Shown here piece after piece: positions 12,920-32,221 of a stretch of DNA of 42,146 nucleotides. A program made the position numbers and the translations under genes. Source of the DNA: Dehalococcoidales bacterium (GTDB taxonomy: Bacteria; Chloroflexota; Dehalococcoidia; Dehalococcoidales; RBG-16-60-22); NCBI GenBank assembly GCA_034430755.1, contig DAOUDY010000003.1, positions 1-42,146 on the forward strand, read 5' to 3'. Within the stretch, counting starts at the first letter, position 1, and each line of letters starts with the position of its first letter. Below the pieces are notes generated by a model. The model saw nothing but the letters and a program-made list of their open reading frames with translations, did no database searches and was not told where the DNA came from.

Positions 12920-12942
12920 AAGATAAGTTGAGGAGCAAAGCC

Positions 12943-13338
12943 ATGCCACAAATAAATAATGACCTCGGCAGAATAATAAAACAGCAGAGAATCGCCATTC
13001 CGCTGACCCTGCAGGAACTGGCCGCTGCTTCGGAGGTATCTTCTTCTCATTTAGGACGTATTGAGAGAGGCGAGCGCTTCCCCTCAGCTCACATCCTGCG
13101 CCGAATTGCCAAGCCTCTTGGCTTTGACGAGGATGAGCTCTTCACCCTCGCCGGTTTCCTGTCGCCGCACACCTCCACAGTCGCCGAAGAGAGAGGTACC
13201 GCTTACGGCAACCGCCGCCTGGACCCGTATGTTGCCAAAATCTTGGCCGAGGAGCCAATCGAGATTCAACGGGCTATAATCGGCATTCTCAACACGGTGA
13301 AACTTGTGGCCAAGGGAATGGCCAGAGAAAACGAGTGA
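12943..13338 (+). CDS. XRE-family helix-turn-helix transcriptional regulator
   Basis: ATG at 12943 preceded by AGGAG (12931-12935). HTH_3-type motif LTLQELAAASEVSSSHLGRIERGER. Confidence 0.8.
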   Translation: MPQINNDLGRIIKQQRIAIPLTLQELAAASEVSSSHLGRIERGERFPSAHILRRIAKPLGFDEDELFTLAGFLSPHTSTVAEERGTAYGNRRLDPYVAKILAEEPIEIQRAIIGILNTVKLVAKGMARENE

Positions 13339-13377
13339 TATCCTTACGCCCATAAAAATGCACCGACGGCGGTAGAG

Positions 13378-14088
13378 ATGGAAGGCCTGAGACAGATAAG
13401 TGATAAGGATGGTAAAAAGATTGGCTTTGGCGATGCCACCGTCCATGAGCTGAGAACGCTGCTTACGGCCATCATTGTTTCCGCAGAGCTTCTGTCCGAA
13501 GAACTTCAGTCAGACCATAAAGGTATGCCGCTGAGACTTATCCAGAATATAGTTCGCAATGCGCACAGCCTTGATGAAAAATTGACCAACTTTTCAGAAA
13601 TGGCCGGCCTGCTTTCCGGCGAGTTTTCCTTTCAGCCCGAGACGCTTGAGGTTGGGCCGGTCGTTCGCGGCATAACCTCTCAGATCTACCCGATTACGCA
13701 CAGCCGAAAACAGTCATTACACATTGATTTGCCCGCAGCCCTGCCTCATATCCGGGCACACCGCCATTACCTGGAACAGATACTGATTAATCTGCTCACC
13801 AATGCCAGCAAGTTTACGCCTGAGGGAGGGAACATAACGGTGACGGCCGCCAAGAATGACTCCAATCTAATAATCGAGGTGTCTGATAACGGCATTGGCA
13901 TTCCGGCGGATAAGCAGGAACTGGTATTTCAACCCTATTACCAGATTGACGGAGGCAGGGGAAGCGGGCTGGGACTGGCCATCACCAAGTTCCTGGTGGA
14001 GCTTCATGGCGGCAAGATATGGCTGGAGAGTACCCCGGGGAAGGGCAGCCACTTTTTCTGCTCCCTGCCGCTATCGGGACAGAGCTGA
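13378..14088 (+). CDS. Histidine kinase, DHp plus HATPase core only (no sensor or TM region)
   Basis: 236 aa. H-box ATVHELRTLLTAI at residue ~23, N-box LINLLTNASKF, G1 VSDNGIGIP, G2 GSGLGLAI. Confidence 0.85.
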   Translation: MEGLRQISDKDGKKIGFGDATVHELRTLLTAIIVSAELLSEELQSDHKGMPLRLIQNIVRNAHSLDEKLTNFSEMAGLLSGEFSFQPETLEVGPVVRGITSQIYPITHSRKQSLHIDLPAALPHIRAHRHYLEQILINLLTNASKFTPEGGNITVTAAKNDSNLIIEVSDNGIGIPADKQELVFQPYYQIDGGRGSGLGLAITKFLVELHGGKIWLESTPGKGSHFFCSLPLSGQS

Positions 14089-14105
14089 GAGCAGAGGGTG
14101 AATAG

Positions 14106-14798
14106 ATGAAAGTAGTGGTTATTGATGATTCACCGGAAATAATAGAGGTAGTCTCTCTGTGCTTCCAGCTACGCTGGGGGAACACATCGGTGTTTCCCGC
14201 CAGTGATGGCAACAAGGGGCTGGAGCTTGTCGAGAAGGAAAACCCTGATCTGGTCATACTTGATATCGGCCTGCCCGATATGGACGGTTTCCAGGTGCTC
14301 CGTGAGATACGGCGCTTCTCTCATGTCCCGGTGATAATGCTTACCGTGAAGAGCGAAGACACTGATATCGCCAAGGGGCTGGAACTGGGCGCCGATGATT
14401 ACGTTACCAAGCCCTTCAGTCATATTGAACTGCTGGCCCGGGTGCAGGCGGTGATGCGCCGTTCCCGGGGTGAGCCATCTCCCGCTGAGGAACAGCCTTA
14501 CACCAGCGGCAAACTGCACGTTGACTTTGCCCGCAATGAGGTCCTGATCGATGGCAAGCCGGTGAAGCTTACGTCGACAGAGTATAAATTACTCTACCAT
14601 CTCATCAAAAATGAGGGGCGTTTGCTTTCCCATGAAAACCTGCTCACCAAGGTATCCGGCGAAGCATATCGCGACGCCCGTGACCTGCTCCGGGTCCACA
14701 TTCAGCACCTGCGGCAAAAGCTCGGTGATAACGTTGAATCACCCGGCATCATAGTTACCGAGCACGGCATGGGCTACAAGTTTGTCAGTCCCGCCTGA
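14106..14798 (+). CDS. OmpR/PhoB-family response regulator
   Basis: 230 aa. Canonical receiver (DD, ILDIGLPDMDG, MLT, TKPF) and a winged-helix output domain (TEYKLLYHL...GMGYKF). Confidence 0.9.
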   Translation: MKVVVIDDSPEIIEVVSLCFQLRWGNTSVFPASDGNKGLELVEKENPDLVILDIGLPDMDGFQVLREIRRFSHVPVIMLTVKSEDTDIAKGLELGADDYVTKPFSHIELLARVQAVMRRSRGEPSPAEEQPYTSGKLHVDFARNEVLIDGKPVKLTSTEYKLLYHLIKNEGRLLSHENLLTKVSGEAYRDARDLLRVHIQHLRQKLGDNVESPGIIVTEHGMGYKFVSPA

Positions 14799-14860
14799 CC
14801 TCGGAACGGACGGCCCGCCGCCTTCCCGAAAAAATTGCGCTTCTAACCATCCGGCCCGCC

Positions 14861-14940
14861 ATTCTTTACGAAACTTTAATAGAACCTTTACGAAATCTTT
14901 ATTTTTTTTATGCCTGTCTTTATGCTCACGTGTTAGATTA
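14861..14940 (+). promoter_or_regulatory. Conserved cis-regulatory module, copy 1 (two TTTACGAAA repeats 22 bp apart, two TCTTTAT repeats, TG-extended -10-like TAGATT)
   Basis: It aligns without gaps to 23052-23131. It ends ~40 bp before the ATG at 14979. Confidence 0.55.
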
Positions 14941-14978
14941 AAAGCGTAGATATTACGGCAGCTTTAGAGGAGCTGAAT

Positions 14979-15764
14979 ATGGATAAAATAACCGTCTTTC
15001 TGGCAGACTGGCAGGTTCTTTTCCGTGAAGGCATTCACTTTACCCTGTCCGGTGAGGAAGATATGGAAGTGATTGGTGAAGACGTAGGTAACGAACAGGC
15101 ACTGGCTTTTATTGAGACCAATCCACCGCAGGTGGCGATTTTGAACGCGAGCCATGATAAGGTAAACGGTTTTGAGGCCACGCGTACGATTAAACAGACC
15201 CTGCCTGAAGTATCGGTTATCCTGGTCATGGACAATTACAGCGAGGAACAGCTTTTTGAGACCTTGAAAAGCGGTGCCAGCGCTTGCTTTAACAAGGACG
15301 TTGACCCCGATGTCGTGATTAACACGATAAGGGAAGTGGCGAAGGGCAACCAACCGATAAGTGAGGCCATCCGGAAACCGGAGATTGCCTCCCGGATTCT
15401 TGATGATTTTACCGCGTATTCCTCGCTCGGCGAGGAGGCCGGGAAACTGCTGGCCCACCTCACTCCCCGCGAGGCGGAAATCCTGCACCAGATAGCCGAT
15501 GGCAACACCAAGGAACAGATAGCCAGTACACTGGGCATCACTGATGAGGCACTCGACAAGCGGCTTCACTCCGCACAGTACAAGCTGGTGGTCAACGACC
15601 AGAAGCTAATGGTGATTGAGATGGCCCAGAGCGGCCTGCCGGCGATCTCCCGGGTCAGTTTCACCGGCAAACCGGGTACCGAGTATATTACCAAAGAGGA
15701 ATTCGCCGCTTTCAAGGAAAGCCTGAAAGAACGTTTCAAGTTCCTTAGCGGAGATATAAGTTAA
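14979..15764 (+). CDS. NarL/LuxR-type response regulator with atypical (Asn) phospho-acceptor position and C-terminal extension
   Basis: 261 aa. Receiver-like N-terminus and a LuxR HTH (LTPREAEILHQIADGNTKEQIASTLGITDEALDKRL). The position where Asp is expected reads AILNASHDKVNG. Confidence 0.8.
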   Translation: MDKITVFLADWQVLFREGIHFTLSGEEDMEVIGEDVGNEQALAFIETNPPQVAILNASHDKVNGFEATRTIKQTLPEVSVILVMDNYSEEQLFETLKSGASACFNKDVDPDVVINTIREVAKGNQPISEAIRKPEIASRILDDFTAYSSLGEEAGKLLAHLTPREAEILHQIADGNTKEQIASTLGITDEALDKRLHSAQYKLVVNDQKLMVIEMAQSGLPAISRVSFTGKPGTEYITKEEFAAFKESLKERFKFLSGDIS

Positions 15765-16561: not shown

Positions 16562-16589
16562 CGGGGTTGCCTCATATGAGGCAACCCCG
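16562..16589 (+). terminator. GC-rich hairpin downstream of P1 (possible terminator/attenuator, no U-tract)
   Basis: The near-perfect palindrome CGGGGTTGCCTCATATGAGGCAACCCCG starts 22 nt after the P1 stop. Confidence 0.4.
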
Positions 16590-16602: not shown

Positions 16603-16631
16603 TTGACAGATATTATGACAAGTGGTAGACT
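16603..16631 (+). promoter_or_regulatory. Near-consensus promoter for the P2-P3-P4 genes
   Basis: TTGACA (16603-16608), a 17-nt spacer, then TAGACT (16626-16631), ~40 nt upstream of the P2 GTG start. Confidence 0.5.
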
Positions 16632-16673: not shown

Positions 16674-17201
16674 GTGAAGAAGCTACTTCTGATTGCTTTA
16701 GTGGCATTGCTGGTGGTAACCGGCGGTATGTTCGCCTACACTTTCACCACCGCTACCGCCACCATTGGCGTTACCGCACCGACGTCTGACTTCGCCAATG
16801 TTACGGCGGGCGGCAGCATCAGCGCACCGTCCGTTTTCGGCAAATTCACCGGCACGTGGCCATCAAGCACATTATTCGACATCACCCCGGCGGAGAACTA
16901 CACCGGCGACCTTGTCGTCAAGGTGTACCTGGTGAATACCGGCCAGTTAATACGGCAGTATCACCACATCAACATGACGCTTGAATTCCAGGACAGCACC
17001 GACACTATGTTTGACGAACAGGGAGAAATCCAGGTCCTGAACATGCAAAATGCTGAAGTCCTGTTCACCTGGGAGAACGGCGCCGGCACCAGTCCTTATA
17101 AAGTGGTGCTCACCGGCGGCGGTTTCCGGCTGCACCCGTTTAAGTCACTGACGGGCGGCAGTTACCAGCCGCAGATATGGTGTGAGATAACCCAGAGATA
17201 A
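16674..17201 (+). CDS. Secreted subunit paralog P2 (smallest, core-only; candidate major subunit)
   Basis: GTG start after GGGAGG. The N-terminus is MKKLLLIALVALLVVTGGMFA|YTFTTATATIGVT. The core is NYTGDLVVKVYLVNTGQLIRQY and the C-terminus is IWCEITQR. Confidence 0.75.
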   Translation: MKKLLLIALVALLVVTGGMFAYTFTTATATIGVTAPTSDFANVTAGGSISAPSVFGKFTGTWPSSTLFDITPAENYTGDLVVKVYLVNTGQLIRQYHHINMTLEFQDSTDTMFDEQGEIQVLNMQNAEVLFTWENGAGTSPYKVVLTGGGFRLHPFKSLTGGSYQPQIWCEITQR

Positions 17202-17228: not shown

Positions 17229-20200
17229 ATGACCAGACATTGGGACAAAAAGGCAAAGAAAAAACTGTACCTCTTCATCGCACTGGGGCTCGCGCTGATT
17301 CTCAGCAGCGGGACCTTTGCCTATACCTATGTTACCTCCATCGGCACCATCGGTATTACGCCTCCCACCGCTGATGTCGCCACCTGCAACACGGCTGCCA
17401 GCCAGCCTGACTGGGCATCCATCCTGGTCCCTCCGGAAACCACCGGCACCGAGATATTAAACCCCAACGCCGCCGGTGACAAGACCGATATCCAGAGCCA
17501 GATTGGTTCTGGCGCCCACTGGCAACTGGTGGATGACTGGCCCACGGATGACGGCGACAGCACCATCGTTTACACGGGAAATACCAGCTGGGAAGAGGAC
17601 TTATACAACCTGCCCAGCCACACCGCGACCTCGGGCAACGTGACCTACGTCAAGGTTGACGTTGTCTGCCGTGCCGACGCCAGCCCCACGCAGACAAACG
17701 CCTACGTTCACATAAAGACGAACGGCACGGAGGCTAACGGCCCTGAAGTAACCACCGGCACAAGCTACAGCACCTTCTCCCGCCAGTGGGATACCAATCC
17801 AGTTACCGGAGATGCCTGGACGTGGGACGAGATGGACTCACTGCAAATCGGCGTCGGTTTGCGGCAGCCGACGGGCGGTGGTCTGTCAGGATGCACTCAG
17901 GTATACGCTGAAATTGGCTACGGTGAACTTGTCACCACCGGCGACGTGCCCACCGGCGACCTGTTTACCGTGCACCCCAACCCCGGCTACAACGGTGACC
18001 TGCAAATTGGCATCTATCTGACCAACACCGGCCCGCTGATCAAGGCATACCAGTACCTCAATATGCAGGTATACATGGAGGGCTCGGTATCATCAAACCA
18101 GACGCCCAACCACCGTCTCCTCACCCTCCAGAACGGGCAGACCACCCTGTCCCTGGAAAATTTGGCCGGCGTTTCCGATTCATTCTTTCAGACCAGCCGG
18201 TTGGACTTTGAGGGCGGCAACCTGACCAACCTGGACACGTCCACCAGCCCGGACAACGTCATTCTGGACACCTTCGCCGATAATGTGACCGATAATTTCA
18301 CCGATGAGAGCAAGATTGCCTATAAAAATAATGTGGTTGTTAGCAATAATCAGGTAAAACTGGTGGCTGGCGGCGCCGCCGCTACGGAAACCTTCCGGCC
18401 CAATGCCGCCGGCGATGACACCGATATCGCCTCGCAATATCCTGACTCGGGGGCACACTGGGACAAGGTGAATGATGTAACGCCTGATGATTACACGACC
18501 TATATCTATACCAGCAGTGCTTCCACACTAAACTGGTACAGCTCTGAATGGCAATACCGAAAGAAGATAACCATTAATTCGGCCAATGTCTCGGACAACC
18601 TCACTGATTTTCCGGTTTTAGTCTCGGTCACTGATACCGATTTAAAAGACCATGCTAAATCGGATGCTTCGGACATCGTCTTCACCGCGTCCGACGGTAC
18701 CACCAAATTGAAAAGAGAAATTGAAAGCTATGATAATTCTGACGGTACTTTGGTTGCCTGGGTGAAAACAGACCTGTCAAGCACCACTGATACCGAGGTT
18801 TATCTTTATTACGGATATGCCGGAGCTTCCGAGACCAGCGACACCGACACCTGGGATACCAATTTCATCATGATTCAACACATGACGGATGAGACTACCT
18901 CCAGCATTGAAGACAGCACAACTAATAATAACGATGGCACCAAGCAGGGCGCGGGAGAACCTGCCGTCACCGCCAGTGGCAAGATAGGTGATGCGCAGGA
19001 TTTTGACGGCAGCAATGATAAAATCACGGTGAATGATAGCACAAGCCTCAGCTTCACCAATGATGAAATGACCATCGAAGTCTGGGTGAAAGCTGACACC
19101 CTGCCCACGAACGAGACATCAATACTGAGAAAAGATAACCAGTGGCAGATGGCTTTCGTGGACTCGGATACAATTAGGAATCTGATTGCCACAAATGGCA
19201 TCACTGGCTGGACAGCCGCCAATGATGAAGATTACACCTTCTCCACTGATACCTGGTACTACTGGACTTTCGTCTACAACGGCCCGAATGTCCGCCACAT
19301 GATCGATGCCCAGCAGGTCGGCAGTTCCCACACCGTCACCGGCAACATCACCGATAATGCTAATGTCGCCGAGATAGGCCGCTGCAGTTATACGAATGAA
19401 TTCCTGGATGGAATCATCGATGAGTTACGCATCTCCAATGTGGCCAGAAGTGATGCCTGGATAGAGACCAGCTACAACAACCAGAGCGCCCCCGGTGATT
19501 TTTTCAACGTGGGGAGCGAGGAGTCTGCCGGCTATGAAAGGGACCTATATAACATCCCCGACCACAGCACCGGCTCCGGCGTCATTGACAGCGTTAACGC
19601 CTACTTCAGTATTGCCAGAGACTCAGTCATTGGCGATGCTGGCATCTGGCGGGATACCAACAACACCCACACCATCGGAGCCCTTAATGTCTGGACAGAC
19701 GTCCCGTTCAACAGCGAGAATAAAACCAGCGGCAGCTTTAACCATACCAGCGATACCCAGACTGACCTGACCGCCGATGGCTGGTATCTCATCATGTACG
19801 AAATAAGGTCAACCTCCACTTCCAACACCAGACACAGCATATGGGCGCGGGTTACCCTGGAAGGTTCGGCGGTGGAGGGCAGCGAGGGGTTCGGTTACGT
19901 CAGAGACAATGCCAATGATGAAGGGTATACGGCCGGCGCCTGCATCGTCAACGCCAGCGCCAACGATACCGTGGTGGTGCAGTGGCGGCCCTACGGTGTG
20001 AGTTCCTCTGATGTTCTGTCAAACTCCAAGGCTTCGCTCTTCATCCTGAGGCTTCCCGATGATACCGATGTCGCCTATCTGAAGTATGCCGATGACAGCG
20101 ATACCGGCGCCTACGGCGGCACGAGCTGGGCCGGAAACGAGGTTACCTGGGCAGACCAGGTATATGAAACGGACAACAGCGTCATTCAGAAGTCGGCGGC

Positions 20201-21992
20201 CAATGACTACACCTTCACCCTCAAAAAAGTCGCCCGGTATCTGGTCAAGTATGATATCACCTTCGCAAATAGCTCCTCCACCAGGACAGCCAGAATAGCC
20301 CGGGCTACCCTGGCCGGTTCCCCCATACCGCAAAGTTTTGCCTACTGCCATGTTCGAAACAACGTTACTACACCCGCCACATTACATGCGCTCTTTATTG
20401 TTGATAACCCATCACCGAATCAGGACCTCATCATTCAATCCCAGCGAGGCGACTCGCTGGTAGATTCAACGGTAGCCAGGACAGTCAGCGCTTCCAGCAT
20501 CGAGATTATGGAGCTGCCGTCAAGCGCCGAAGTAATCACCACTTATTATACTGATACCGGGGAAGAGATATCCGGTGGTGTAGTGCTGGACTGGGCCGCC
20601 GTGGAAGGAGTGCGTGATGCCAGCTCCTTCACCATTTCTGATAATGAGACCATAGAGGTGGAGCAGGATGATGATTACCTGTTTATGGCCAACGGGTTAA
20701 TCACCGATACTGTCCAGACTTCCGGCACCCGGTTCACCTTCGGGGCCGACTGGTACGTCGATGACAGCATCCAGTATGTGGGCGGTCACGGGAATTACAT
20801 GCGGCATGTCCAGGGCACTGTTGGAGTTTTCAACACCAGTATAAACGCACATAGTATTTTGAATGACCTGGATGCCAACCAGGAAGTGGAAATGCGTACT
20901 ATCAATGAAGGTGATACCGGTACCCCCAACTACGCCCAGCCCGACCAGTGCGGCTTCAGCGCGCTCAGGATAGGCAGCCTGTCAGCGACCAATGCTTACG
21001 CCCGGGCGGCCATCAAGCCCGGGGACACTGTTCATACCGGCACCGAAGAAAGCACCGCCGACGCCACCTTCACCACCAAGTCCTACCAGTGGACGACCAA
21101 CCCTGACACGGGCCAACCCTGGACCTGGGATGAAATAGACGCTTTGCAAGTCGGTGTGGAACTGAAGACAGACAGCACCGAGGACTCTTCCATCTGTACG
21201 CAGGTCTACCTTGAGGTTGATTACACCGCGTACAGTTCGCCGGGAACACTCACCTCGATAAATCTTCTCTCCGGGGAGACGGTGGCGAGTATAGACACGT
21301 TCAATTACGACGCCTCGGCGGTTCCCTCCGGCACGGGCCTGAAAGTGCAGTTCTCCACCGATAACAGCACCTGGTACAACTCGGCGGGCACGCCCGGCGG
21401 CTGGGATACCATGCCCCAGGGGACGGGTAATATCAGCCTTTCCGGGCTGGGCTGGTCGGGGCCCAATCTCTACTACAATACGGAATTCACCTCTGACGGC
21501 TCGGATACGCCGTTGCTCGACCTGATACGCGTCTATTTCTCCACCTACTACTCGACGGGCGATCTGACCTCAGCAACCTATGACACCGGCGATGACCAGG
21601 ACTGGGACTGGGAATATATCTATTTCACCATTGACGAGCCGGGGACCACTGATATCAGGTTCCAGATAAGGAGCGCCTCGACTGAAGCCGGGCTCAGCTC
21701 GGCGACCTGGTACGGCCCCACCGGCACGGGCGACTATTACACGGCCAGCGGCACAGAAATCAACTCCGTCCATGATGGCGACCGCTGGATTCAGTACCGG
21801 GCCGATTTCTCCGGCCCCGGCGATGCCACGCCAACCCTGAGCGATATCGAGTTGACCTACACCCTGGCCTCGGTGACTTACACCGTGGAAATAATCGGCG
21901 GTAGCTACGGGCTGGTCTCGTCCGACACGTCGGACTGGGCGTCGGGGTGGACGATTACCCCAGAGTTTTACTGCGAGGTAACCCAGCGGTAA
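17229..21992 (+). CDS. Giant secreted paralog P3 (1587 aa): subunit core carrying nested DUF2341-like, LamG and repeat-domain insertions
   Basis: The N-terminus is ...LALILSSGTFA|YTYVTSIGTIGIT. The DUF2341-like stretch is WQYRKKITINSANVSDNLTDFPVLVSV...YLYYG. LamG motifs are FDGSNDKITV...EVWVKAD...LDGIIDELRISNVARSDAWI. The C-terminus GWTITPEFYCEVTQR is shared with P4. Confidence 0.85.
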   Translation: MTRHWDKKAKKKLYLFIALGLALILSSGTFAYTYVTSIGTIGITPPTADVATCNTAASQPDWASILVPPETTGTEILNPNAAGDKTDIQSQIGSGAHWQLVDDWPTDDGDSTIVYTGNTSWEEDLYNLPSHTATSGNVTYVKVDVVCRADASPTQTNAYVHIKTNGTEANGPEVTTGTSYSTFSRQWDTNPVTGDAWTWDEMDSLQIGVGLRQPTGGGLSGCTQVYAEIGYGELVTTGDVPTGDLFTVHPNPGYNGDLQIGIYLTNTGPLIKAYQYLNMQVYMEGSVSSNQTPNHRLLTLQNGQTTLSLENLAGVSDSFFQTSRLDFEGGNLTNLDTSTSPDNVILDTFADNVTDNFTDESKIAYKNNVVVSNNQVKLVAGGAAATETFRPNAAGDDTDIASQYPDSGAHWDKVNDVTPDDYTTYIYTSSASTLNWYSSEWQYRKKITINSANVSDNLTDFPVLVSVTDTDLKDHAKSDASDIVFTASDGTTKLKREIESYDNSDGTLVAWVKTDLSSTTDTEVYLYYGYAGASETSDTDTWDTNFIMIQHMTDETTSSIEDSTTNNNDGTKQGAGEPAVTASGKIGDAQDFDGSNDKITVNDSTSLSFTNDEMTIEVWVKADTLPTNETSILRKDNQWQMAFVDSDTIRNLIATNGITGWTAANDEDYTFSTDTWYYWTFVYNGPNVRHMIDAQQVGSSHTVTGNITDNANVAEIGRCSYTNEFLDGIIDELRISNVARSDAWIETSYNNQSAPGDFFNVGSEESAGYERDLYNIPDHSTGSGVIDSVNAYFSIARDSVIGDAGIWRDTNNTHTIGALNVWTDVPFNSENKTSGSFNHTSDTQTDLTADGWYLIMYEIRSTSTSNTRHSIWARVTLEGSAVEGSEGFGYVRDNANDEGYTAGACIVNASANDTVVVQWRPYGVSSSDVLSNSKASLFILRLPDDTDVAYLKYADDSDTGAYGGTSWAGNEVTWADQVYETDNSVIQKSAANDYTFTLKKVARYLVKYDITFANSSSTRTARIARATLAGSPIPQSFAYCHVRNNVTTPATLHALFIVDNPSPNQDLIIQSQRGDSLVDSTVARTVSASSIEIMELPSSAEVITTYYTDTGEEISGGVVLDWAAVEGVRDASSFTISDNETIEVEQDDDYLFMANGLITDTVQTSGTRFTFGADWYVDDSIQYVGGHGNYMRHVQGTVGVFNTSINAHSILNDLDANQEVEMRTINEGDTGTPNYAQPDQCGFSALRIGSLSATNAYARAAIKPGDTVHTGTEESTADATFTTKSYQWTTNPDTGQPWTWDEIDALQVGVELKTDSTEDSSICTQVYLEVDYTAYSSPGTLTSINLLSGETVASIDTFNYDASAVPSGTGLKVQFSTDNSTWYNSAGTPGGWDTMPQGTGNISLSGLGWSGPNLYYNTEFTSDGSDTPLLDLIRVYFSTYYSTGDLTSATYDTGDDQDWDWEYIYFTIDEPGTTDIRFQIRSASTEAGLSSATWYGPTGTGDYYTASGTEINSVHDGDRWIQYRADFSGPGDATPTLSDIELTYTLASVTYTVEIIGGSYGLVSSDTSDWASGWTITPEFYCEVTQR

Positions 21993-22022: not shown

Positions 22023-23042
22023 GTGAATAAAAACGTTATGCTCATTGTAGTATTGGCGGCACTGCTGGCCGTCAGCGGCGGTATATATGCCTACACGTAC
22101 ACCACCGGCCTGGGCGTCATCAGCATCACCGAGCCAACCGGTGACATCGCCACTGTAAATGCCTCAGGTAACCAGCCAGAATGGCTTGAAGTGCTGTCCA
22201 TCGCCCAGGATACAGAAACGCTGAGGCCAAATGCCGCCGGCACATACACACAATGTGACGCGGTTGGCGATACTGCCAACTACCTTTGTGTAGATGAGGC
22301 TGTCAGTGACGGTGACACCACATATGTCAGAACATGGGGCGGTGCTACCGAGCTGGATACCTATAATATCGAGGATCATACCACCGGGAGTGGAAACGTC
22401 ACCGATGTATATGCTTATACACATACGAGAGTTGATTCAGGCACCCACGACGCAGAAGTGGCCATCAGAACGAATAGCACGGACTATTTTGGGGGCTACA
22501 CTTCAGGGGTGCCAACAACCTATACATACTTATCAGCTAACTGGAACAACAATCCATTCACAAATAACCCTTGGACGTGGGCTGAGGTTGATGCGCTGGA
22601 AATCGGTGTCAGACACTATGACCTTAATGGCGGCTACTTATGGACCACACAGGTCTATGCCGATATTGATTATGACTACCTGCCCGTCACCGGAAATGCA
22701 CCCACGGGAGACCTTTTTGAAGTATATGAAAACCCTGACTACAGCGGCGACCTATCAGTAAGGGTCTACCTGACCAACACCGGCTCGCTGCAAAAAGCCT
22801 ATGAGAGCCTTGAACTGGAGCTGTATCTGGAGGACTCCGAGGAGGCGGGGCAATCACCGAATTACCAGGAGCTTACTTTAGAGAACGGGGTGGCCAGCTT
22901 CACCCTGAAAGACCCGGCCAGCGATAACCATACCCTGTCCGTAATCGGGGGCGACTACGCCCTGGTCTCGGACAATATGCCGGAATGGGAGGCGGGGTGG
23001 ACGATTACCCCAGAGTTCTACTGCGAGGCGACACAGCGGTAA
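22023..23042 (+). CDS. Secreted subunit paralog P4 (core plus one inserted module)
   Basis: GTG start. The N-terminus is MNKNVMLIVVLAALLAVSGGIYA|YTYTTGLGVISIT. It is collinear with P3 residues 1-310 and 1546-1587. The C-terminus is GWTITPEFYCEATQR. Confidence 0.8.
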   Translation: MNKNVMLIVVLAALLAVSGGIYAYTYTTGLGVISITEPTGDIATVNASGNQPEWLEVLSIAQDTETLRPNAAGTYTQCDAVGDTANYLCVDEAVSDGDTTYVRTWGGATELDTYNIEDHTTGSGNVTDVYAYTHTRVDSGTHDAEVAIRTNSTDYFGGYTSGVPTTYTYLSANWNNNPFTNNPWTWAEVDALEIGVRHYDLNGGYLWTTQVYADIDYDYLPVTGNAPTGDLFEVYENPDYSGDLSVRVYLTNTGSLQKAYESLELELYLEDSEEAGQSPNYQELTLENGVASFTLKDPASDNHTLSVIGGDYALVSDNMPEWEAGWTITPEFYCEATQR

Positions 23043-23163: not shown

Positions 23164-24123
23164 ATGAAGGAATTTCTGAATATAATCCTGACCAGATCAT
23201 TCCGCTTCAAGCGCGCGCTCACGCTCATCGCGGTAGCGGCGATAATCCTCGCCGGCTTTATGACGGTACGGGGCACCATGCCGTTTATGCCCGTTTTCGG
23301 TACCAGCATGGAGCCGGAACTCCACGCCGGCAACCTCATCCTGATTACAGACAAGAGTCCGGATGGTGTTGAAGTCGGCGACATTATTGTCTATAACGTC
23401 CCGGCGGCAATCCAGGATTTTTATAACTACCCGGCGATAGTCGCGCACCGGGTAATTGAGGTACGCGATACTCAGTATGGCACTGCCTGGCGTACCAAGG
23501 GCGATAACGCCGGCGAAGACCCGTTCACGGTCCGCGCCAATGACCTGCGCGGCACGGTCAGCACCCAGATTCCCTTCCTGGGCTTCCCCTTCCTCTTCCT
23601 GCAGAGCAAGCAGGGCCTGATGTTCATTATCGTTGCCCTGTCGCTTTTCGCCATCTATCTCTACGCCAATGACATCAGCCGCGGCGGGCAGAAGATACAC
23701 CGTGGCATATTCGCGCCGGTTATCGAAGAGACATTACATGATACCGAAACACTGGCCCAGCGGATGGACGGCACCGAGAAAGTGATGGCCAAGACGCAGG
23801 AAGCGCTGAGCAGCTTCGCCACCGCCATGTCGGAATATGCCGAGCACCTGAGAAGCCATACCAGCGCCATTCAGGGGCTTGCCGAAGCGTCTCACGAACT
23901 CAAACGTGGTGCTGCCGAGCAGAACAAAGCCCTCGAGCACATCGTGGAGGCCCTGCAGCAGCGAAGGCCGCTCACCGAGGTGACCCCGCCTTCAGAGAAG
24001 CCGACGGCACCAACACCAACACCGGCACCGGCACCGGCACGGGAAAAAGGTAAATATCCTCCGGGCTGCGTGAGAAACAGACAGCTGGCTGGCGTGGGGC
24101 AAGACATTTACGGCGCTGCCTGA
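23164..24123 (+). CDS. ER/archaeal-type signal peptidase I (SipW/Sec11-like, S26B) with ~150-aa C-terminal extension
   Basis: 319 aa. N-terminal TM, GTSMEP (Ser48), AHRV (His95), TKGDNAGEDP (Asp114), and a second TM at 150-168. These are followed by a coiled-coil-like segment and a Pro-rich tail (PTAPTPTPAPAPA). Confidence 0.85.
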   Translation: MKEFLNIILTRSFRFKRALTLIAVAAIILAGFMTVRGTMPFMPVFGTSMEPELHAGNLILITDKSPDGVEVGDIIVYNVPAAIQDFYNYPAIVAHRVIEVRDTQYGTAWRTKGDNAGEDPFTVRANDLRGTVSTQIPFLGFPFLFLQSKQGLMFIIVALSLFAIYLYANDISRGGQKIHRGIFAPVIEETLHDTETLAQRMDGTEKVMAKTQEALSSFATAMSEYAEHLRSHTSAIQGLAEASHELKRGAAEQNKALEHIVEALQQRRPLTEVTPPSEKPTAPTPTPAPAPAREKGKYPPGCVRNRQLAGVGQDIYGAA

Positions 24124-24387: not shown

Positions 24388-26394
24388 TTAAACTGCCCCC
24401 AGTTGCAGACGCTGGCGATATTCCCCACGGCGCGGGCTGTAAACGAGAACAAAGCCGAGCACCCGCCGCTTTGCCGCATCAAGCCCGGCACGATTGTCCG
24501 TGATATCTATGACGTCACAGAGCTGCTGACCGCAATTGACCGGCACCAGTATGGTGCCGCTGGCCGATGCCACCTCTGCCTGTCTCAAATAAGCGTCGCC
24601 ACGTTCCTGCGCTTTGGCCACGGTGTCTATGTTCCTGTCTTCCAGCTGCCTGATTTTATCGTATAATCGGTCTATCTCATCCCAGGCAAAACGGTCAACC
24701 ACAATCGCCTCACCGCTCCCCGCGTCATAGCCCTCCACCTGGACGCGGTTGAGCTCCCAGGCTCCCTGCCTGTATCTCCCCTCCAGAATCGGGTGCTCCT
24801 CTCCATAGCTGTACAATGAGCTGTCCGATGATTGGGGATTGACAATGTAAGCCGTCGCACCTTCGAGAAACAGCACATCAGGAACAAAAGAGAGCAGTTT
24901 TCGGATGATTGTTTCGCCAAGGTTGCCGGAACTGACGGTAAAGTCGGGATAAAAACCGGTGATGACCGATGACTGCGATTTGACTGCCAGCTTCAGCCCT
25001 GCCCGGGCCAGAACGAAGGCCAGTATATCCTTGACGCTCATTTCCTCCGCGTCCTTGTTCCAGCGGAACTGGTGCCTGGCCCTCCAGCCAGCGATGGCCT
25101 CCCAGCCGTCCCGGGCATGGAGTATGAGACTGGCCGCGCCACCGGCACTGGTATGTTCATATCCCTCCAGGCAAAAATGCTGCCCGGCACTTACCTCATC
25201 GCCGTTGTCTGTGCGGTAGCCGGGACTGAAGTCCAGCTGGCAGCCGATGTTGAGAAGGGATAGTTCCCCCTGCCCCGGCGAGGCGTACTGCCCGGCATCG
25301 TTCCTCAGCTCTACGGTAAGTCTGCCCGATGCCTCTCCTGCCTCCTGCCGTACCGCCAGCACATCATCGGTCAGGTCAAGGCTCTGAACGGTGGCTCCGG
25401 CGCGCCAGACGCCCGCCGGACAGGAAAGCCAGCAGTAGTCCCCGTGGTGCGCCGCGGCCAGGCCGTATTCCGACGACAAATCAAATGGCACCGGTTCCCG
25501 CCACAGATTATCAACGAACCCGGCATCCGGAACCGTATGCGACCAGAAAGGACGGTTGTACATCTGGCTGCCGGAAAATCGCTCCACGAAGAAACCCCGG
25601 TAGACATCAGGTTTATCCAGAAATGGCTGAAGGTACTCAAATTCGCCGCCCGATGGCGCTGAGGCCAGCTCTTTTAACGGCGACCAGCTTCCCGCTGCTA
25701 CATCACCACCATCACCATAAATGAGCGACCACAGTTTAAAATTGCCCGATGAATCCCGGCCGGTGACCAGCAGGTTCCAGTCGTCCTCATAGACGGCGGC
25801 GATGCCGGACAGGTCACCGGTGCTTTTATCCCAGGTGGTGCGTTGCTGCCACTGGCCGCCGATGTTCTTCTTCACATACATCGTCGCCTGGTCAGCGAAG
25901 AATATCGCCAGGTCACCGTTTGGCCTGTAGGCCGCCGCCAGGCCACCGATATTGATGGTCGGGTTATAGTCAATGACCTCGGGGCTTCCCCAGCTAACGC
26001 CGTTATCGGTGCTCTTTATACGCTGGATCTTGCGGTTGACGCCATCTATCCAGAAAATGGAAACCTCAGCCCCCACCGCGGCACAGGCAACGGCGGCGGC
26101 ATTCATCTGGTTGGTGTATATCCACTGGCTGAAGTCGCTTGACGGACCGGGGTCAGACACCCGCTGGCGGTAAAGCCTGCGCGAATCGCCGGGCAGGGTC
26201 GCCCTGACGCGGATGAGAGAGCCATCGCCGGGCATGGCCACCACATGGTAATAATCATCCTCGGAGCCGGTGTACAGCCTGTTCCAGTCAAGCCTCACCA
26301 CGCCGGCAATTTTGTTCCTGGCTTCTACCTTAACACAGGGAATGGCGGCGGCTTCTTTCTGGGCCGCCAGCAATGTCGATGTCAGGTCGCGCAT
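24388..26394 (-). CDS. Phage-like tail/baseplate-hub-like protein with N-terminal BNR/Asp-box (sialidase-like) region
   Basis: 668 aa. One clear Asp-box (STDNGVSW). By eye the C-terminal ~330 aa resembles gpD/Mu gp44/XkdQ-type hub proteins (LTVELRND...ILAFVLARAGLKL...). This is a pattern-level call only. Confidence 0.45.
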   Translation of the reverse strand: MRDLTSTLLAAQKEAAAIPCVKVEARNKIAGVVRLDWNRLYTGSEDDYYHVVAMPGDGSLIRVRATLPGDSRRLYRQRVSDPGPSSDFSQWIYTNQMNAAAVACAAVGAEVSIFWIDGVNRKIQRIKSTDNGVSWGSPEVIDYNPTINIGGLAAAYRPNGDLAIFFADQATMYVKKNIGGQWQQRTTWDKSTGDLSGIAAVYEDDWNLLVTGRDSSGNFKLWSLIYGDGGDVAAGSWSPLKELASAPSGGEFEYLQPFLDKPDVYRGFFVERFSGSQMYNRPFWSHTVPDAGFVDNLWREPVPFDLSSEYGLAAAHHGDYCWLSCPAGVWRAGATVQSLDLTDDVLAVRQEAGEASGRLTVELRNDAGQYASPGQGELSLLNIGCQLDFSPGYRTDNGDEVSAGQHFCLEGYEHTSAGGAASLILHARDGWEAIAGWRARHQFRWNKDAEEMSVKDILAFVLARAGLKLAVKSQSSVITGFYPDFTVSSGNLGETIIRKLLSFVPDVLFLEGATAYIVNPQSSDSSLYSYGEEHPILEGRYRQGAWELNRVQVEGYDAGSGEAIVVDRFAWDEIDRLYDKIRQLEDRNIDTVAKAQERGDAYLRQAEVASASGTILVPVNCGQQLCDVIDITDNRAGLDAAKRRVLGFVLVYSPRRGEYRQRLQLGAV

Positions 26395-26403
26395 TTTTTC
26401 CTT

Positions 26404-26724
26404 TCACACCAGCGCCGCCAGGATATCTGGCAGCGGCTTGTTTCCCTTTCGATAATGTTCCGCAAGATGAAGGGCCGCCCCGAGTATCTCTTCCGGGCTA
26501 ACACGAACTCTTTTACCCGGACTTAACGGGGACAGGGCATTTGCCGCATCGGCAGCCTGACTCCAGTCGACGGTCTGCTCGATATCCAGAAGGCCTTTGA
26601 GAGCCCGGCCAATATTTCTCTTATGATGCGGCAAATGCCAGGTATCTGGATTCCCCACATCGCCAACGATAGCAAATGCCTCGCGGGGCAGGCCTTCTTT
26701 GGTCCGCTTCGTTCCTTCTTTCAT
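26404..26724 (-). CDS. Hypothetical protein (phage-like block)
   Basis: 106-aa ORF, co-oriented, with a 9-nt gap to the next gene. Confidence 0.45.
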   Translation of the reverse strand: MKEGTKRTKEGLPREAFAIVGDVGNPDTWHLPHHKRNIGRALKGLLDIEQTVDWSQAADAANALSPLSPGKRVRVSPEEILGAALHLAEHYRKGNKPLPDILAALV

Positions 26725-26736
26725 GTCTGCCTCACA

Positions 26737-27375
26737 TCAGGGACCATAATCAGTTGACTTTGAGACCACCGGATAGTATGGCTTATACAGGCTGCTGTCC
26801 CTGACCCGGTTTCTCCTTCCCAGGCGCCTCAATTCCTGCCGGAAAAAGTTCAGCCTTTCCCGGCCCCAACCAAGAAACTCCCGGGGCGTGGTATCTCCAC
26901 CAACATTCACCCGATTGACAGCAAAAATAGCCCACTCGACGGCAGCATAACCGGCAGCGCCGGCAGCAACCAGGTCTTCATACCGGCCGGGGATGGTGGA
27001 ACCATCAGCGTCAAGAGTGTGCAGCTTACCGTAGTACACATAAGCATTGGAGCCGTCCGGTATCTCCTCACTCAATATGGTCAGGGTATCTCCCCACAGC
27101 GAGAACCTCTGGTAACGTCTGGGGAACTGGTCCACCGGGTACTCAACCGCCATCATCATTACCCTGTCGGAAAGGTTTGATATATCCAGCTCCCGCAAGC
27201 CTGAGGTCGTAGCTTTCGTCGCCTTCTGCTCGCTTGGCAGATACTCGGACAAATCTTTAACCGCACGGGCAATGTGCCTGTTCAGTTCATCATCAGTCCA
27301 GCGATAGTTACCGTCATCCTCGTCATGGAGGTCACGCCGGACCATGGCTCTCATATCAGTTAAATTCATAATCAC
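26737..27375 (-). CDS. Putative head-tail adaptor/connector-like protein
   Basis: 212 aa. The N-terminus LTDMRAMVRRDLHDEDDGNYRWTDDELNRHIARAVKDLSEYL resembles gp6-like head-tail connector N-termini. The position relative to the capsid gene fits that role. Confidence 0.4.
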   Translation of the reverse strand: MIMNLTDMRAMVRRDLHDEDDGNYRWTDDELNRHIARAVKDLSEYLPSEQKATKATTSGLRELDISNLSDRVMMMAVEYPVDQFPRRYQRFSLWGDTLTILSEEIPDGSNAYVYYGKLHTLDADGSTIPGRYEDLVAAGAAGYAAVEWAIFAVNRVNVGGDTTPREFLGWGRERLNFFRQELRRLGRRNRVRDSSLYKPYYPVVSKSTDYGP

Positions 27376-27450
27376 CTCACCCCCTTAGTCCCCCTCTCCT
27401 TAAAAGGAGAGGGGGGAAATGATTTTTTGAAGGGGGCTTCGCCCCTTCAT
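27376..27450. repeat. Intergenic double-hairpin repeat, copy B (10-bp C/G stem 27390-27415 plus GAAGGGG..CCCCTTC 27429-27448)
   Basis: It has the same architecture as 2758-2835, with similar C-rich flanks. Confidence 0.5.
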
Positions 27451-27463
27451 ACTTCCCTTTTAT

Positions 27464-27544
27464 TTAGACAGCAGCTTTTCTGCTTGCCCTTTTCTTAGAT
27501 AGCAGCTTTTCTGCTTGCCCTTTTCTTAGATAGCAGCTTTTCTG
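27464..27544. repeat. 31-bp tandem direct repeat, about 2.6 copies
   Basis: Units occupy 27464-27494, 27495-27525 and 27526-27544 (TTAGA[C/T]AGCAGCTTTTCTGCTTGCCCTTTTC). The partial unit contains the stop codon and last codons of ORF 27526-27756. Confidence 0.9.
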
Positions 27545-27756
27545 ACCTCCAGTCTTTCCAGCTTGGTGCAGGGCAGGCCTTCATCATGCCGGCATATCTC
27601 AATGTCACAGAATGAAATCTCCTCGTTACTCATGCCCTCATTGATGCTGACGGCTTTACCGCTCAATTCCCGGGCATATTCCATCAGTGATTGTGCATCA
27701 GCTTCGCGGTCAAAGCTCAAATCAACTCTTACCCGATACTTCATCGATACCTCCAC
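27526..27756 (-). CDS. Hypothetical small acidic protein (phage-like block)
   Basis: 76-aa ORF. Its start overlaps the LamG gene stop by 16 nt. Confidence 0.45.
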   Translation of the reverse strand: MEVSMKYRVRVDLSFDREADAQSLMEYARELSGKAVSINEGMSNEEISFCDIEICRHDEGLPCTKLERLEVRKAAI

Positions 27757-28382
27757 TTCGTCGCCAGATAGTTATGTTGGATTTCCAAAAGCGTCAGGGC
27801 ACGGCGGTAAATTCTGACCTCACCGATAAGGCCGTTTAGATAATATGCTGCCGCGGCCCGGCCTAGCTGGACATCGTTTGTGGTAACGTCTATGGTGCCT
27901 GTCACCGAGGTTGCTGGCGTCCGCTCCACGCCGTTGATATACAGGCGCAAATAGTGGCCGCAATAGGTGATAACCGCGTGATGCCACGTTTCCAGCAGCG
28001 CCGTGTAAAAGTACGTAAATCTGGCACTGCCGTCAATCTTGAACCTGCCGTATAAATTGGTGCCGTTCTCGTTTATCCGCAGTGAATAGCTGTCATTTTT
28101 ATCAAGTATGCCCGGCCACTCGTTTGCCGCCGCTGCCGCCGACAGATTCGCCCACGCCTCGAGCGTGATCGAGCTGGTGATATCAAATATCGACGAATTA
28201 CCGCAATTGATTATGTCATCGCTGCCGTCGAAGCTCCTGCCCACGGGCGTCCAGCGGGCTCCGGTCACCGTGCACCGGTGGCCATAGACATCCCGGGACA
28301 TAAACGGGCTGCCATCGATAACCTGAAGCGGCAGATAAAGAACCAAGCTGGGGTCAAAGATAAAGTTCACTTCACACCTCAC
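27741..28382 (-). CDS. LamG/concanavalin-A-like lectin domain protein
   Basis: 213 aa with FDGSDDIINCGNSSIFDITSSITLEAWANL ... YLNGLIGEVRIYRRALTLLEI, the typical LamG edge-strand motifs. Confidence 0.7.
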   Translation of the reverse strand: MRCEVNFIFDPSLVLYLPLQVIDGSPFMSRDVYGHRCTVTGARWTPVGRSFDGSDDIINCGNSSIFDITSSITLEAWANLSAAAAANEWPGILDKNDSYSLRINENGTNLYGRFKIDGSARFTYFYTALLETWHHAVITYCGHYLRLYINGVERTPATSVTGTIDVTTNDVQLGRAAAAYYLNGLIGEVRIYRRALTLLEIQHNYLATKWRYR

Positions 28383-28843
28383 GACGCAGCATACTTTACG
28401 CTTACATAGCTGGAGTTTTTCACCTTGGCCCGGCCTTCGTTTGCTTCATTGCACTGGATGAGCAGCTTGACCTCGAAAGGCAGGGAATTGAAATTGCTGA
28501 CCATCTTGAAGCGGCCGCTCCGCGTCTCCTCGACGTAGCTGGTGCCGATATCGGTCTTGGTGACCGCGCTGTGCAGGTCAACCCAGGTGCCGCCCTGGTT
28601 CCTCGCCTGCCATTTATAGGTGAGGTCGGCCGTGGCCGAGGACACGGCCCGGAAGGCCGCCGTCAGGCCGAACTCGACCTCCATCACCTCGCCCAGTGCC
28701 GGCGGCCTGACGGCGACACTCTCCACCTCGACATCGGTGTCTGGAGTCGTCGTATCCACCTCGGATGACCACTGGACACCGTCCGAGGTCAGGTCTCCCT
28801 TGGCAAAGGGATATTCCGCATGTTCAATTACGGCAAGTACCAT
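28379..28843 (-). CDS. Hypothetical protein downstream of the capsid gene (possible decoration or neck protein)
   Basis: 154-aa ORF with a 4-nt overlap to the LamG gene. An AGGAGG RBS lies upstream. Confidence 0.5.
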   Translation of the reverse strand: MVLAVIEHAEYPFAKGDLTSDGVQWSSEVDTTTPDTDVEVESVAVRPPALGEVMEVEFGLTAAFRAVSSATADLTYKWQARNQGGTWVDLHSAVTKTDIGTSYVEETRSGRFKMVSNFNSLPFEVKLLIQCNEANEGRAKVKNSSYVSVKYAAS

Positions 28844-28860
28844 CTTTTACCTCCTTTAAG

Positions 28861-28883
28861 GGGGGAGGGTAATCCCCTCCCCC
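28861..28883 (-). terminator. GC hairpin between the capsid gene and downstream genes (possible attenuator)
   Basis: GGGGGAGGG-taatc-CCCTCCCCC, a 9-bp stem, lies between the capsid stop (28893) and the next RBS. Confidence 0.35.
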
Positions 28884-28892
28884 ACTGCTTCA

Positions 28893-30301: not shown

Positions 30302-30319
30302 CGTTATGCCTCCTGCCGA

Positions 30320-32024: not shown

Positions 32025-32072
32025 GTCTGTTCACTCTAGCCATCGGCCCAATACTAAAATCAAGCAACACAA

Positions 32073-32101
32073 ATTTAGCACATATGTTCTATCGCAGTCA
32101 A
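32073..32101 (-). promoter_or_regulatory. Host-type promoter driving the phage-like block
   Basis: On the minus strand, TTGACT (32096-32101) is followed by a 17-nt spacer and CTAAAT (32073-32078). Confidence 0.4.
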
Positions 32102-32122
32102 TGGCCTTTTGTCGCTTTTTCC

Positions 32123-32151
32123 TTGACAGTTGATAGTGGTCTTGTTAGTAT
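32123..32151 (+). promoter_or_regulatory. Promoter for dnaJ
   Basis: TTGACA (32123-32128), a 17-nt spacer, then TAGTAT (32146-32151). Confidence 0.45.
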
Positions 32152-32221
32152 CATAGTAGAGATATTGCGCACGGAAGACATTTTTGAACGCGATTTTAAC
32201 CTGCTGAAATAGGCATTGAAA

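Follow-up and report, generated by a model that had tools for sequence, protein, structure and literature searches.

A 1587-residue protein with domains nested within domains, encoded among putative fibre subunits of a Dehalococcoidales bacterium

The locus described here is a run of five consecutive genes on the + strand, as called in the open reading frame (ORF) list of a 42,146-nucleotide (nt) stretch of DNA, the window (contig DAOUDY010000003.1 of the Dehalococcoidales assembly GCA_034430755.1). These genes encode four related proteins, P1, P2, P3 and P4, and a signal peptidase; coordinates below are those of the window and lie on the + strand unless stated otherwise. P3 (17229-21992) is a giant of 1587 amino acids (aa). 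Its neighbours are P2 (16674-17201, 175 aa), which consists of a core alone and is the putative major subunit, and P4 (22023-23042, 339 aa), in which the core carries one intact additional module in an N-terminal loop. P1 (15851-16540, 229 aa as called) is a divergent core-only paralog, and the signal peptidase (23164-24123, 319 aa) is of the archaeal, SipW-like type. P3 contains a complete P2-type core, and the greater part of the protein is inserted into a single hairpin of that core, within which a further domain is itself interrupted by inserts. With moderate confidence, P3 is read here as a giant decorated subunit of a P1-P4 and SipW-type operon, that is, a sparse minor member of a fibre on which it would carry display domains.

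The core of P3 can be traced by BLASTP at both ends of the protein. P4 3-299 aligns with P3 11-313 (43% identity, E 5e-60) and P4 299-339 with P3 1547-1587 (61% identity, E 6e-12), while P2 matches P3 in three stretches, at 12-58 (P2 2-48, 45%, E 7e-9), 237-316 (P2 59-140, 35%, E 2.5e-13) and 1551-1587. P2 also matches P4, at 6-50 and 223-339. Because P2 and P4 match both ends of P3, the P2-type core must be complete, with ~1230 residues (aa ~317-1546) inserted into it; this agrees with the original prediction, made from the letters of the DNA, that about 1235 residues are inserted before the last strands of the core. By profile hidden Markov models (HMMs), the signal peptide, the N-terminal strand (a putative donor strand) and the first core elements occupy aa 1-60 (17229..17408; coreN HMM, independent E-value, i-E, 7.5e-26), the central core strands aa 236-316 (17934..18176; coreC HMM positions 3-82, i-E 4e-29), and the last two core strands aa 1547-1587 and the stop codon (21867..21992; coreC HMM positions 78-119, i-E 9e-15). 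In the AlphaFold2 (AF2) models of P4 (predicted local distance difference test, pLDDT, 88.6) and P2, the insertion point is the hairpin loop preceding the last two core strands, with flanking strands E290-295 and E302-314 in P4 and E128-133 and E142-153 in P2. The P3 chain ends in ...YCEVTQR, and the C-termini of P2, P3 and P4 share the form ...[WY]C-E-x-T-Q-R-stop (17190-17198, 21981-21989 and 23031-23039, respectively). The terminal Q and R are invariant or nearly so in the P2 and P4 families, and the Cys is usual, with A or L in its place in some P2 homologs. This shared ending may mark an interface, or it may serve as a signal for processing.

P3 and P4 carry, between their N-terminal segment and the remaining core, a jelly-roll module of ~165 aa that is found in neither P1 nor P2 (module HMM: P3 72-232, i-E 5.5e-58; P4 61-219, i-E 4e-57). 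The intact copy of P3, termed modA (aa 61-235, 17409..17933), lies in the N-terminal core loop and is absent from most P3 orthologs as well as from P2. It had been predicted that the module is an insertion relative to P2 and that it forms the second of three nested levels. The first part is borne out by BLASTP and the HMM, but the second is not: modA occupies a second site of the core, in parallel to the large insertion and outside it.

The large insertion opens with a linker (aa 317-377, 18177..18359) that is conserved in orthologs, with 48-76% identity across all P3-type orthologs, and that has no match in the Pfam scan. It is followed by a second copy of the module, module B, in three pieces. 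Piece 1 covers aa 378-432 (18360..18524; module HMM positions 4-53, i-E 3e-14), piece 2 aa 769-799 (19533..19625; 42% identity to modA 118-141) and piece 3 aa 1255-1338 (20991..21242; module HMM positions 85-166, i-E 2.5e-24). Module site 1, between pieces 1 and 2, holds an insert of 336 aa (aa 433-768, 18525..19532) with DUF2341 and Laminin_G_3 domains, and module site 2, between pieces 2 and 3, an insert of 455 aa (aa 800-1254, 19626..20990) made up of three ~150-aa units. After piece 3, a tandem pair of beta-rich domains of ~100 aa each, t1 and t2 (aa 1339-1546, 21243..21866), leads to the last core strands. The self-comparison of P3 by BLASTP was made with segments masked, the unmasked search giving the identity match only. 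In this comparison, modA 66-120 aligns with P3 378-432 (50%, E 6e-8), modA 118-141 with P3 766-789 (42%, E 0.012, or 4e-4 in the reverse search) and modA 151-231 with P3 1249-1332 (46%, E 4e-15), so that the three pieces are collinear with modA and free of overlap relative to it. With the junctions at 432/769 and 799/1255, as set by alignment to orthologs in which the sites are empty, the pieces spliced in silico align end to end both with modA (45% over 170 aa, E 3e-37) and with the module of P4 (40% identity along 157 aa, E 3e-18), as expected if the second copy is split in three. The depth of nesting is that of a core enclosing module B, which in turn encloses the DUF2341-LamG and BclA_C-like units.

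The contents of these inserts are recognisable in part. Laminin_G_3 (PF13385, a ConA-like lectin fold) is matched over its full profile length at aa 593-745 (78.8 bits, cut-off 27.6), and DUF2341 (PF10102) at aa 479-549 (35.3 bits, cut-off 23.4) when aa 433-595 are scanned alone, DUF2341 being absent from the Pfam output for full-length P3; the predicted DUF2341-like and LamG content of the first gap is thus confirmed above cut-offs. The DUF2341-LamG insert has a G+C content (GC) of 0.49 and a third-position value (GC3) of 0.60, next to a GC of 0.52-0.59 in the flanking module pieces and 0.55-0.61 in the core segments, and it is 64-66% identical to the matching unit of three other proteins (P0021, P0023 and P0024). 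This is consistent with its acquisition as a cassette. At site 2, where three tandem repeats had been expected, unit 1 is a BclA_C domain (PF18573, C1q/TNF-like; 45.8 bits in the whole protein and 41.6 alone, cut-off 38), and unit 2, with 15.9 bits for BclA_C, is below that cut-off yet homologous to unit 1 (hhalign 97%, E 9e-11). Unit 3 has no BclA_C match in the Pfam scan. It resembles units 1 and 2 in size and register, and its similarity to them is not significant (E 0.004-0.08), so unit 3 was not accepted as their homolog and the expectation of a triplicate repeat stands for two units only. The two C-terminal repeats proceed as foreseen: t1 and t2 are related (hhalign E 7e-5), with 10 invariant columns in a global alignment. 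A search of PDB returned no match for t1 or t2, and in Pfam they show a weak F5/8 type C (discoidin) match (E 0.03). Every complete P3-type ortholog has at least one t-unit, mostly one t1 and one t2, the exceptions being P0009 with three t1 and P0007 with t2 and no t1.

How such an architecture could arise is made visible by the orthologs. The comparison set comprised P3 homologs and loci of 22 species, the latter all found in metagenome-assembled genomes assigned to Dehalococcoidia, Dehalococcoidales or Dehalococcoidaceae. In seven species (L005, L008, L012, L013, L015, L017 and L021), P3 is found in a ground state of ~640 aa, consisting of the core, the linker, an intact contiguous module, t1, t2 and the last core strands. 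Another form, of 956-1011 aa (L001, L007, L011 and many protein clusters), has at site 2 a propeller-like array of ~310-370 aa with six to eight ~48-aa repeats of the pattern GDVYAIAY.G.G.DGWL.TVEI..SGNITDTVIDTLEFD. This array, which is also at site 2 of P0008, P0010 and P0012-P0019, has no match in Pfam and is probably a beta-propeller. The N-terminal module together with three BclA_C-like units at site 2, site 1 being empty, characterises proteins of 1100-1251 aa (L010, L014, P0002-5 and P0007), among them those of two species at 1236-1251 aa. In P0006 and P0011 (1098-1277 aa) it is a third module site, at position ~26, that holds a DUF2341-containing insert while site 2 is empty, and in L016 such an insert is at site 1 of a P3-type gene that ends at the contig end. 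Three loci (L006, L018 and L023) have neither P3 nor P4 and consist of P1, P2 and SipW only. The P3 of the window is the most elaborate form among those compared, with both module sites filled and the N-terminal module present. Three irregular cases were also seen. In P0324 (489 aa), a P4-type subunit, module site 2 is occupied by an insert of 152 aa. L025 combines a P2-like gene with two short core fragments. The P3-type gene of L009 is read as two ORFs (288 + 394 aa) that overlap, so that a frameshift, a pseudogene or a sequencing error is suspected.

Since the orthologs show each site either empty or filled, they demonstrate directly that the split pieces make up one domain and that the inserts are discrete units; piece 2 is directly joined to piece 1 in P0002 and to piece 3 in P0006. 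This evidence for the reassembly of module B is stronger than what a structure model would give, and it upholds the prediction of nested domain insertion into a small-subunit fold. It also bears on the concern that the architecture is an artefact, whether of chance motif recurrence or of chimeric metagenome assembly. Both module gaps are filled in one contig only, and the DUF2341-LamG insert has the lower GC noted above, yet the three pieces are collinear and jointly cover the whole module, all junctions are in frame and located in loops, and each insertion state occurs independently on other contigs and in other species, the site-1 DUF2341 insert being present in L016, P0023, P0024 and P0029. 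An artefact is in consequence extremely unlikely, and the collinear pieces and empty-site orthologs speak against chance recurrence in particular. A stepwise series from P2 through P4 to P3, as originally envisaged, is not what the orthologs indicate. P4 and P3 represent two lineages side by side, each with its own choice of core loops, and a linear descent was rejected since an N-terminal module of the P4 type is missing from most P3 orthologs. Decoration would appear to evolve by gain, loss and exchange of cassettes at a few permissive loops. The architecture of P3 differs between genomes whose P2 proteins are 60-85% identical, and this turnover, which has a parallel in the hypervariable region of flagellins, suggests a diversifying pressure on the targets of the fibre or on its binders, such as phages.

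The module is by no means confined to P3. A P4 profile matched 13,045 of 1.84 billion representative proteins at E <= 1e-3, and about 100 of the 150 matches listed score best over the module positions alone, in proteins of 169-2707 aa with one to seven matched stretches. In some of them the module is joined to S8 protease, Big_2, fn3, cohesin or CARDB domains. The Pfam scans gave no family for the module. In phages, it matches the C-terminal part of two uncharacterised families, phrog_6368, which is matched by P4 aa 65-197 at E 2e-9, and phrog_2448. In a fold search of BFVD, it superimposes on a 173-aa phage protein (TMt 0.82, root-mean-square deviation, rmsd, 2.1 A) and on the matched, C-terminal part of phage proteins of 320-365 aa (rmsd 1.3-2.4 A), and a tblastn search of GenBank phages gave a single weak, unannotated match. 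Its fold neighbours in PDB are carbohydrate-binding modules (CBMs).

Among the proteins retrieved, split copies of the module cluster at profile positions ~26, ~50 and ~85-90 of 167. Three proteins of ~1420 aa with a pilin-like N-terminus (…KGQALAIVLALLAIG…), P0023, P0024 and P0029, have the order N-half, full copy, N-half, DUF2341-LamG, C-half, C-half, which reads as a module inside a module with DUF2341-LamG within the inner copy. The gene for P0023 (L002 10001-14275) lies within a type IV pilus cluster with PilB, PilC, PilM, pilins and a prepilin peptidase; the end of this contig carries two further genes convergent with the cluster, one SipW-like (56% identical) and one of P4 type. In general, module copies group by type and not by host protein. 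At L014 (6208-10946), the N-terminal module of P3 and the module of the adjacent P4 are 100% identical over ~110 aa while their flanks are 60-76% identical and the DNA is 87% identical over 870 nt. This indicates a recent gene conversion between paralogs, a collapsed assembly being less likely, and it speaks for an exchange of cassettes among subunits.

The nature of the core itself was approached through its fold. The AF2 model of P2 (pLDDT 83.5) has as its five best Foldseek matches in PDB the cannula proteins CanX (9h8b), Hyper2 (9bab) and CanA (7uii, 9dlo and 9hdi), with probability 1.0, E 8e-5 to 3e-4 and a template modelling score (TM) of 0.45-0.62. The next are AbpA (7ueg, rank 6, E 3e-3) and then FimA. 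Searched against 177,635 PDB sequences, the core profiles matched CanA and CanX only, at E 0.17-0.24, below significance (CanA at 0.17 with one core profile, CanX and CanA at 0.24 each with the other), and the two sides share a strand-helix-strand motif, VkVyLvNtgeLikaYqyLnmeL against KLKVTLANAAQLRPYFKYLQLVL. No family was found for the core or the module in Pfam and NCBIfam scans of P1, P2 and P4, and phmmer found nothing for P3 among PDB sequences. The whole P4 model matched only generic CBM-like jelly rolls in PDB (CBM16, TMt ~0.5), a search that is uninformative on the core because two domains were searched jointly; the P2 model resolved the core.

All four paralogs have hydrophobic N-termini in the manner of Sec-type signal peptides, with a predicted cleavage site, and a GG-x-[FY]-A motif followed by a conserved N-terminal strand. 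The stretch behind the signal helix is modelled with low confidence in P4, and low model confidence has been reported for the unpaired donor strands of cannula-like proteins (PMC12518558). The TasA superfamily comprises cannula proteins, AbpA and TasA, which are Sec-secreted and polymerise in that the N-terminal donor strand of a subunit is inserted into its neighbour; a signal peptidase I gene often adjoins those for TasA and AbpX, and an operon of paralogs with a dedicated SipW peptidase is a signature of TasA-like systems (PMC12518558). Given the cannula and AbpA fold matches, the matches of the core profiles and the N-terminal segment, the P1-P4 family appears TasA-superfamily-like, nearest to the cannula-like branch and outside the Pfam TasA family. 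The polymerising core of the original prediction is indirectly supported by the same cannula fold matches, by the CanX and CanA profile matches and by the SipW peptidase in the operon.

That P1-P4 are instead non-filamentous, namely monomeric, SipW-processed surface or S-layer-associated scaffolds with P3 as a stand-alone multidomain binder, is judged quite unlikely. In its favour, small beta-sandwiches easily look alike, the TM is 0.45-0.62 and the sequence E values are ~0.2, a Pfam TasA match is lacking, and the clade is known from sequence alone. It is nevertheless a single filament family to which the top five structures and both of the matching PDB sequences belong, and the following fold matches, AbpA and FimA, are further donor-strand pilins. 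Several paralogs with a dedicated SipW peptidase in the operon carry the TasA-like signature, and an N-terminal strand conserved in four paralogs, together with P2 homologs that are 68-97% identical among the 120 listed, better fits a self-assembling subunit.

If the family forms fibres, export and cleavage by SipW would be followed by donor-strand exchange, in which each subunit lends its N-terminal strand to its neighbour and so completes that neighbour's jelly roll. The bulk of the fibre would consist of P2. It is the candidate major subunit because it is highly conserved, has a promoter-like site of its own and has a strong Shine-Dalgarno sequence. Its homologs number 270, those named being from Dehalococcoidia or Chloroflexota; the site (16603-16631, TTGACA-17-TAGACT with TG), a consensus match only, is the best promoter-like match of the region; and the Shine-Dalgarno sequence preceding P2 is AAGGGAGG, that of P3 being weak by the same kind of consensus matching. 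The three loci with P1, P2 and SipW only were also counted toward P2 as the major and P3 as a minor component, as were the changes in P3 architecture between genomes with 60-85% identical P2. P3 and P4 (192 homologs, of which the 120 listed are mostly ~345 aa long) could fit into the same fibre because they retain every core element, and would co-polymerise as minor subunits, with their extra domains in two outward-facing core loops. In P3, the last core hairpin holds the linker, module B, t1 and t2, with the second module in the N-terminal core loop, and two loops of module B contain DUF2341 plus LamG and the three BclA_C/TNF-like units. The lectin-like (LamG and CBM-like module) and TNF-like (BclA_C) domains so displayed could serve adhesion or matrix binding; the folds of LamG, BclA_C and the CBM-like module, and the same nested DUF2341-LamG in giants associated with type IV pili, speak for a display role. 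An adhesin role of P3 is plausible.

The position of P3 within such a fibre is a separate matter. A dedicated tip, nucleator or anchor subunit, present once per filament like TapA, FimH or RrgA, would be in keeping with its bulk, since a ~175-aa core bearing decoration of ~1400 aa could hardly be packed without clashes beside others of its kind if all neighbours were P3, with its single gene per operon and weak ribosome-binding site, and with its accessory character, as loci without P3 and P4 still hold P1, P2 and SipW. The pneumococcal tip adhesin RrgA, too, reportedly has domains nested within domains. P3 nonetheless keeps both its N-terminal putative donor strand and the C-terminal strands of the would-be acceptor groove, whereas known terminal subunits miss one of the two; it has no anchoring motif or C-terminal transmembrane segment, and ends at a core strand. 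Fibre position is not readable from sequence, and a dedicated terminal role is considered unlikely. The tip subunit proposed in the original prediction is accordingly not indicated. Since both strand-exchange elements are kept, P3 could occupy any position in the fibre and an obligatory tip position is disfavoured, although its bulk would favour sparse or terminal incorporation.

Several points weigh against P3 as a decorated minor subunit of a cannula-like fibre. The filament system is known here from genes and models, and the expression arguments come from consensus motifs. The reassembly of module B rests on orthologs, the models being those of P4 and P2. The sequence similarity to CanX and CanA is marginal, and for a beta-sandwich this small a TM of 0.45-0.62 is moderate. 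The top 50 PDB fold matches of P2 do not include TasA, and PF12389 (Peptidase_M73/TasA) has no match in P1-P4 at E <= 0.1 or in 28 core sequences at E <= 10. In Pyrodictium abyssi, decorated CanX paralogs were not detected in native cannulae (PMC12518558), and incorporation of decorated subunits is unreported for TasA-superfamily filaments in the portions of the literature considered here.

The remainder of the locus shows a conserved setting. The subunit genes are preceded by a block of regulators spanning 12928..15764, which by ORF call encodes an XRE-type helix-turn-helix (HTH) regulator (12928-13338), a histidine kinase (13378-14088), an OmpR-type response regulator (14106-14798) and a LuxR/GerE-type response regulator (14979-15764), the first of these lying upstream of P1 along with the rest. 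The same four regulators (Pfam HTH_3, HisKA/HATPase_c, Response_reg with Trans_reg_C, and Response_reg with GerE) precede the operon on a 114-kb Chloroflexota contig (L001), on which the gene order is the same all the way from purL, by way of the regulators, to the peptidase. With identical synteny, P0014 is the positional ortholog of P3. The operon is flanked by usual chromosomal genes, coding for ArgRS, an amidase, PurL, Der and GpsA. P1 matches both the coreN and coreC HMMs and is 30% identical to P2 over 168 aa (BLASTP, E 8e-15). Its true start is probably the ATG at 15947, which gives 197 aa and has an AGGAGG Shine-Dalgarno sequence 8 nt upstream; P1 orthologs are 185-201 aa long in most loci, and the longer ORF of the window has an extra, non-conserved leader. 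A hairpin follows P1 at 16563-16588, with a perfect 11-bp stem (GGGGTTGCCTC ATAT GAGGCAACCCC) and without a T tract.

The signal peptidase matches TIGR02228 (sigpep_I_arch) with 85.2 bits (cut-off 51.85) and the SipW model NF046067 with 52.6 bits, under the 190-bit cut-off of that model, and its gene lies 3' of the subunit genes in all loci that extend to this point. The window protein has a C-terminal extension of ~150 aa beyond typical archaeal-type signal peptidases, with weak coiled-coil-type matches at aa ~186-297 and a proline-rich tail at its end, and a length of 284-337 aa is kept by the SipW-like peptidase across other loci. Just downstream of the operon, a cluster of phage-like head genes lies on the - strand (24388-32659). 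Encoded there are a portal of the SPP1 type (30320-31705), a major head protein (phrog_212, 28893-29813, E 7.5e-76), structural proteins (26737-27375 and 27741-28382) and a 668-aa ORF that matches no family (24388-26394). L001 carries other genes in its place, and the cluster has the look of an insertion, either the remnant of a prophage or an element that forms capsids.

Taken further, these observations lead to a broader proposal that is put forward only tentatively. Dehalococcoidia, which have no conventional cell wall, may make cannula-like or TasA-superfamily donor-strand filaments with plug-in display, a kind of filament known until now chiefly from archaea. The module would be a three-loop domain (~26, ~50 and ~85-90) that takes up whole domains, including copies of itself, and a cassette swapped among the subunits of fibres, the giant proteins associated with type IV pili and those of phages, and the BclA_C-like triplet, always of three units, would form a single-chain TNF-like pseudo-trimer in one hairpin. 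That polymerising subunits can take up inserted domains is already known in principle. A bacterial cannula-like family, three-deep nesting with natural intermediates and a self-nesting, cassette-like module seem to be undescribed, although this is only weakly established; a search of the literature on Dehalococcoidia, pili and TasA, itself a weak check, found no paper. If the proposed reading of P3 is true, cannula-like or TasA-superfamily filaments would reach into an environmentally important and mostly uncultured class, CanX-like proteins having so far been reported as largely confined to Thermoproteota. The sizes of 175, ~640, ~1000, ~1250 and 1587 aa form an unusually clean natural series of display-domain gain, and the permissive loops could guide the engineering of self-assembling fibres that display folded domains. 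The module, as a very common uncharacterised domain of cell-surface, pilus-associated and phage proteins, merits the definition of a family and of a ligand.

The closest published parallel to P3 is found among the cannula proteins CanX, CanA and Hyper2 of the Pyrodictiaceae (9H8B, 7UII, 9DLO and 9BAB), a divergent family of the TasA superfamily. Like P1-P4, CanX and CanA have a Sec signal peptide, an N-terminal strand and a jelly-roll core, and CanX-like genomes, as here, encode several paralogs, some with large loop or domain insertions. This can be seen in P. abyssi, where CanX paralogs with 'substantial domain insertions' have been proposed, not shown, to be minor cannula subunits (PMC12518558). 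Unlike the cannula proteins, P1-P4 are bacterial, CanX-like proteins being reported mainly from Thermoproteota, and have a SipW peptidase in the operon, which CanX loci do not (PMC12518558). The identity of the P1-P4 core to CanX and CanA is ~10-12%, and neither three-deep nesting nor a cassette polymorphism such as that of P3 has been described for cannula proteins.

With TasA/TapA/SipW of Bacillus subtilis and with AbpA/AbpX, the operon shares paralogous subunits and an archaeal-type signal peptidase I, and from a reading of the sequences the end of the P1-P4 signal peptide, GG-x-aromatic-A, resembles that of TasA. TasA and AbpA/AbpX form matrix or bundling fibres of monoderm type that assemble by donor-strand exchange (PMC9674648, PMC9245690). 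In contrast to TasA and TapA, P1-P4 lack a PF12389 match and are accompanied by no recognisable TapA-like protein; domain-inserted subunits go unmentioned for TasA and AbpA systems in the parts of the literature at hand.

FimH and PapG of chaperone-usher pili and RrgA of sortase pili resemble P3 in joining a pilin-type domain to binding domains. In FimH and PapG, however, the lectin is an N-terminal fusion and a donor strand is missing, whereas P3 is decorated by loop insertion only and keeps both strand-exchange elements, and RrgA, unlike P3, is polymerised covalently by sortase. The module itself differs between settings, being terminal and unsplit in the phage families phrog_6368 and phrog_2448 and split in one of its two P3 copies. 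A last likeness is to the hypervariable region of flagellins, in which N- and C-terminal segments form a polymerising core of out-and-back topology and surface domains are inserted in the middle. Giant flagellins have grown stepwise by duplication and insertion to more than 1000 aa (PMC6248924). Flagellins differ in their unrelated fold, type III export and helical coiled-coil core, and while giant flagellins make up the whole filament, P3 is probably a minor subunit.

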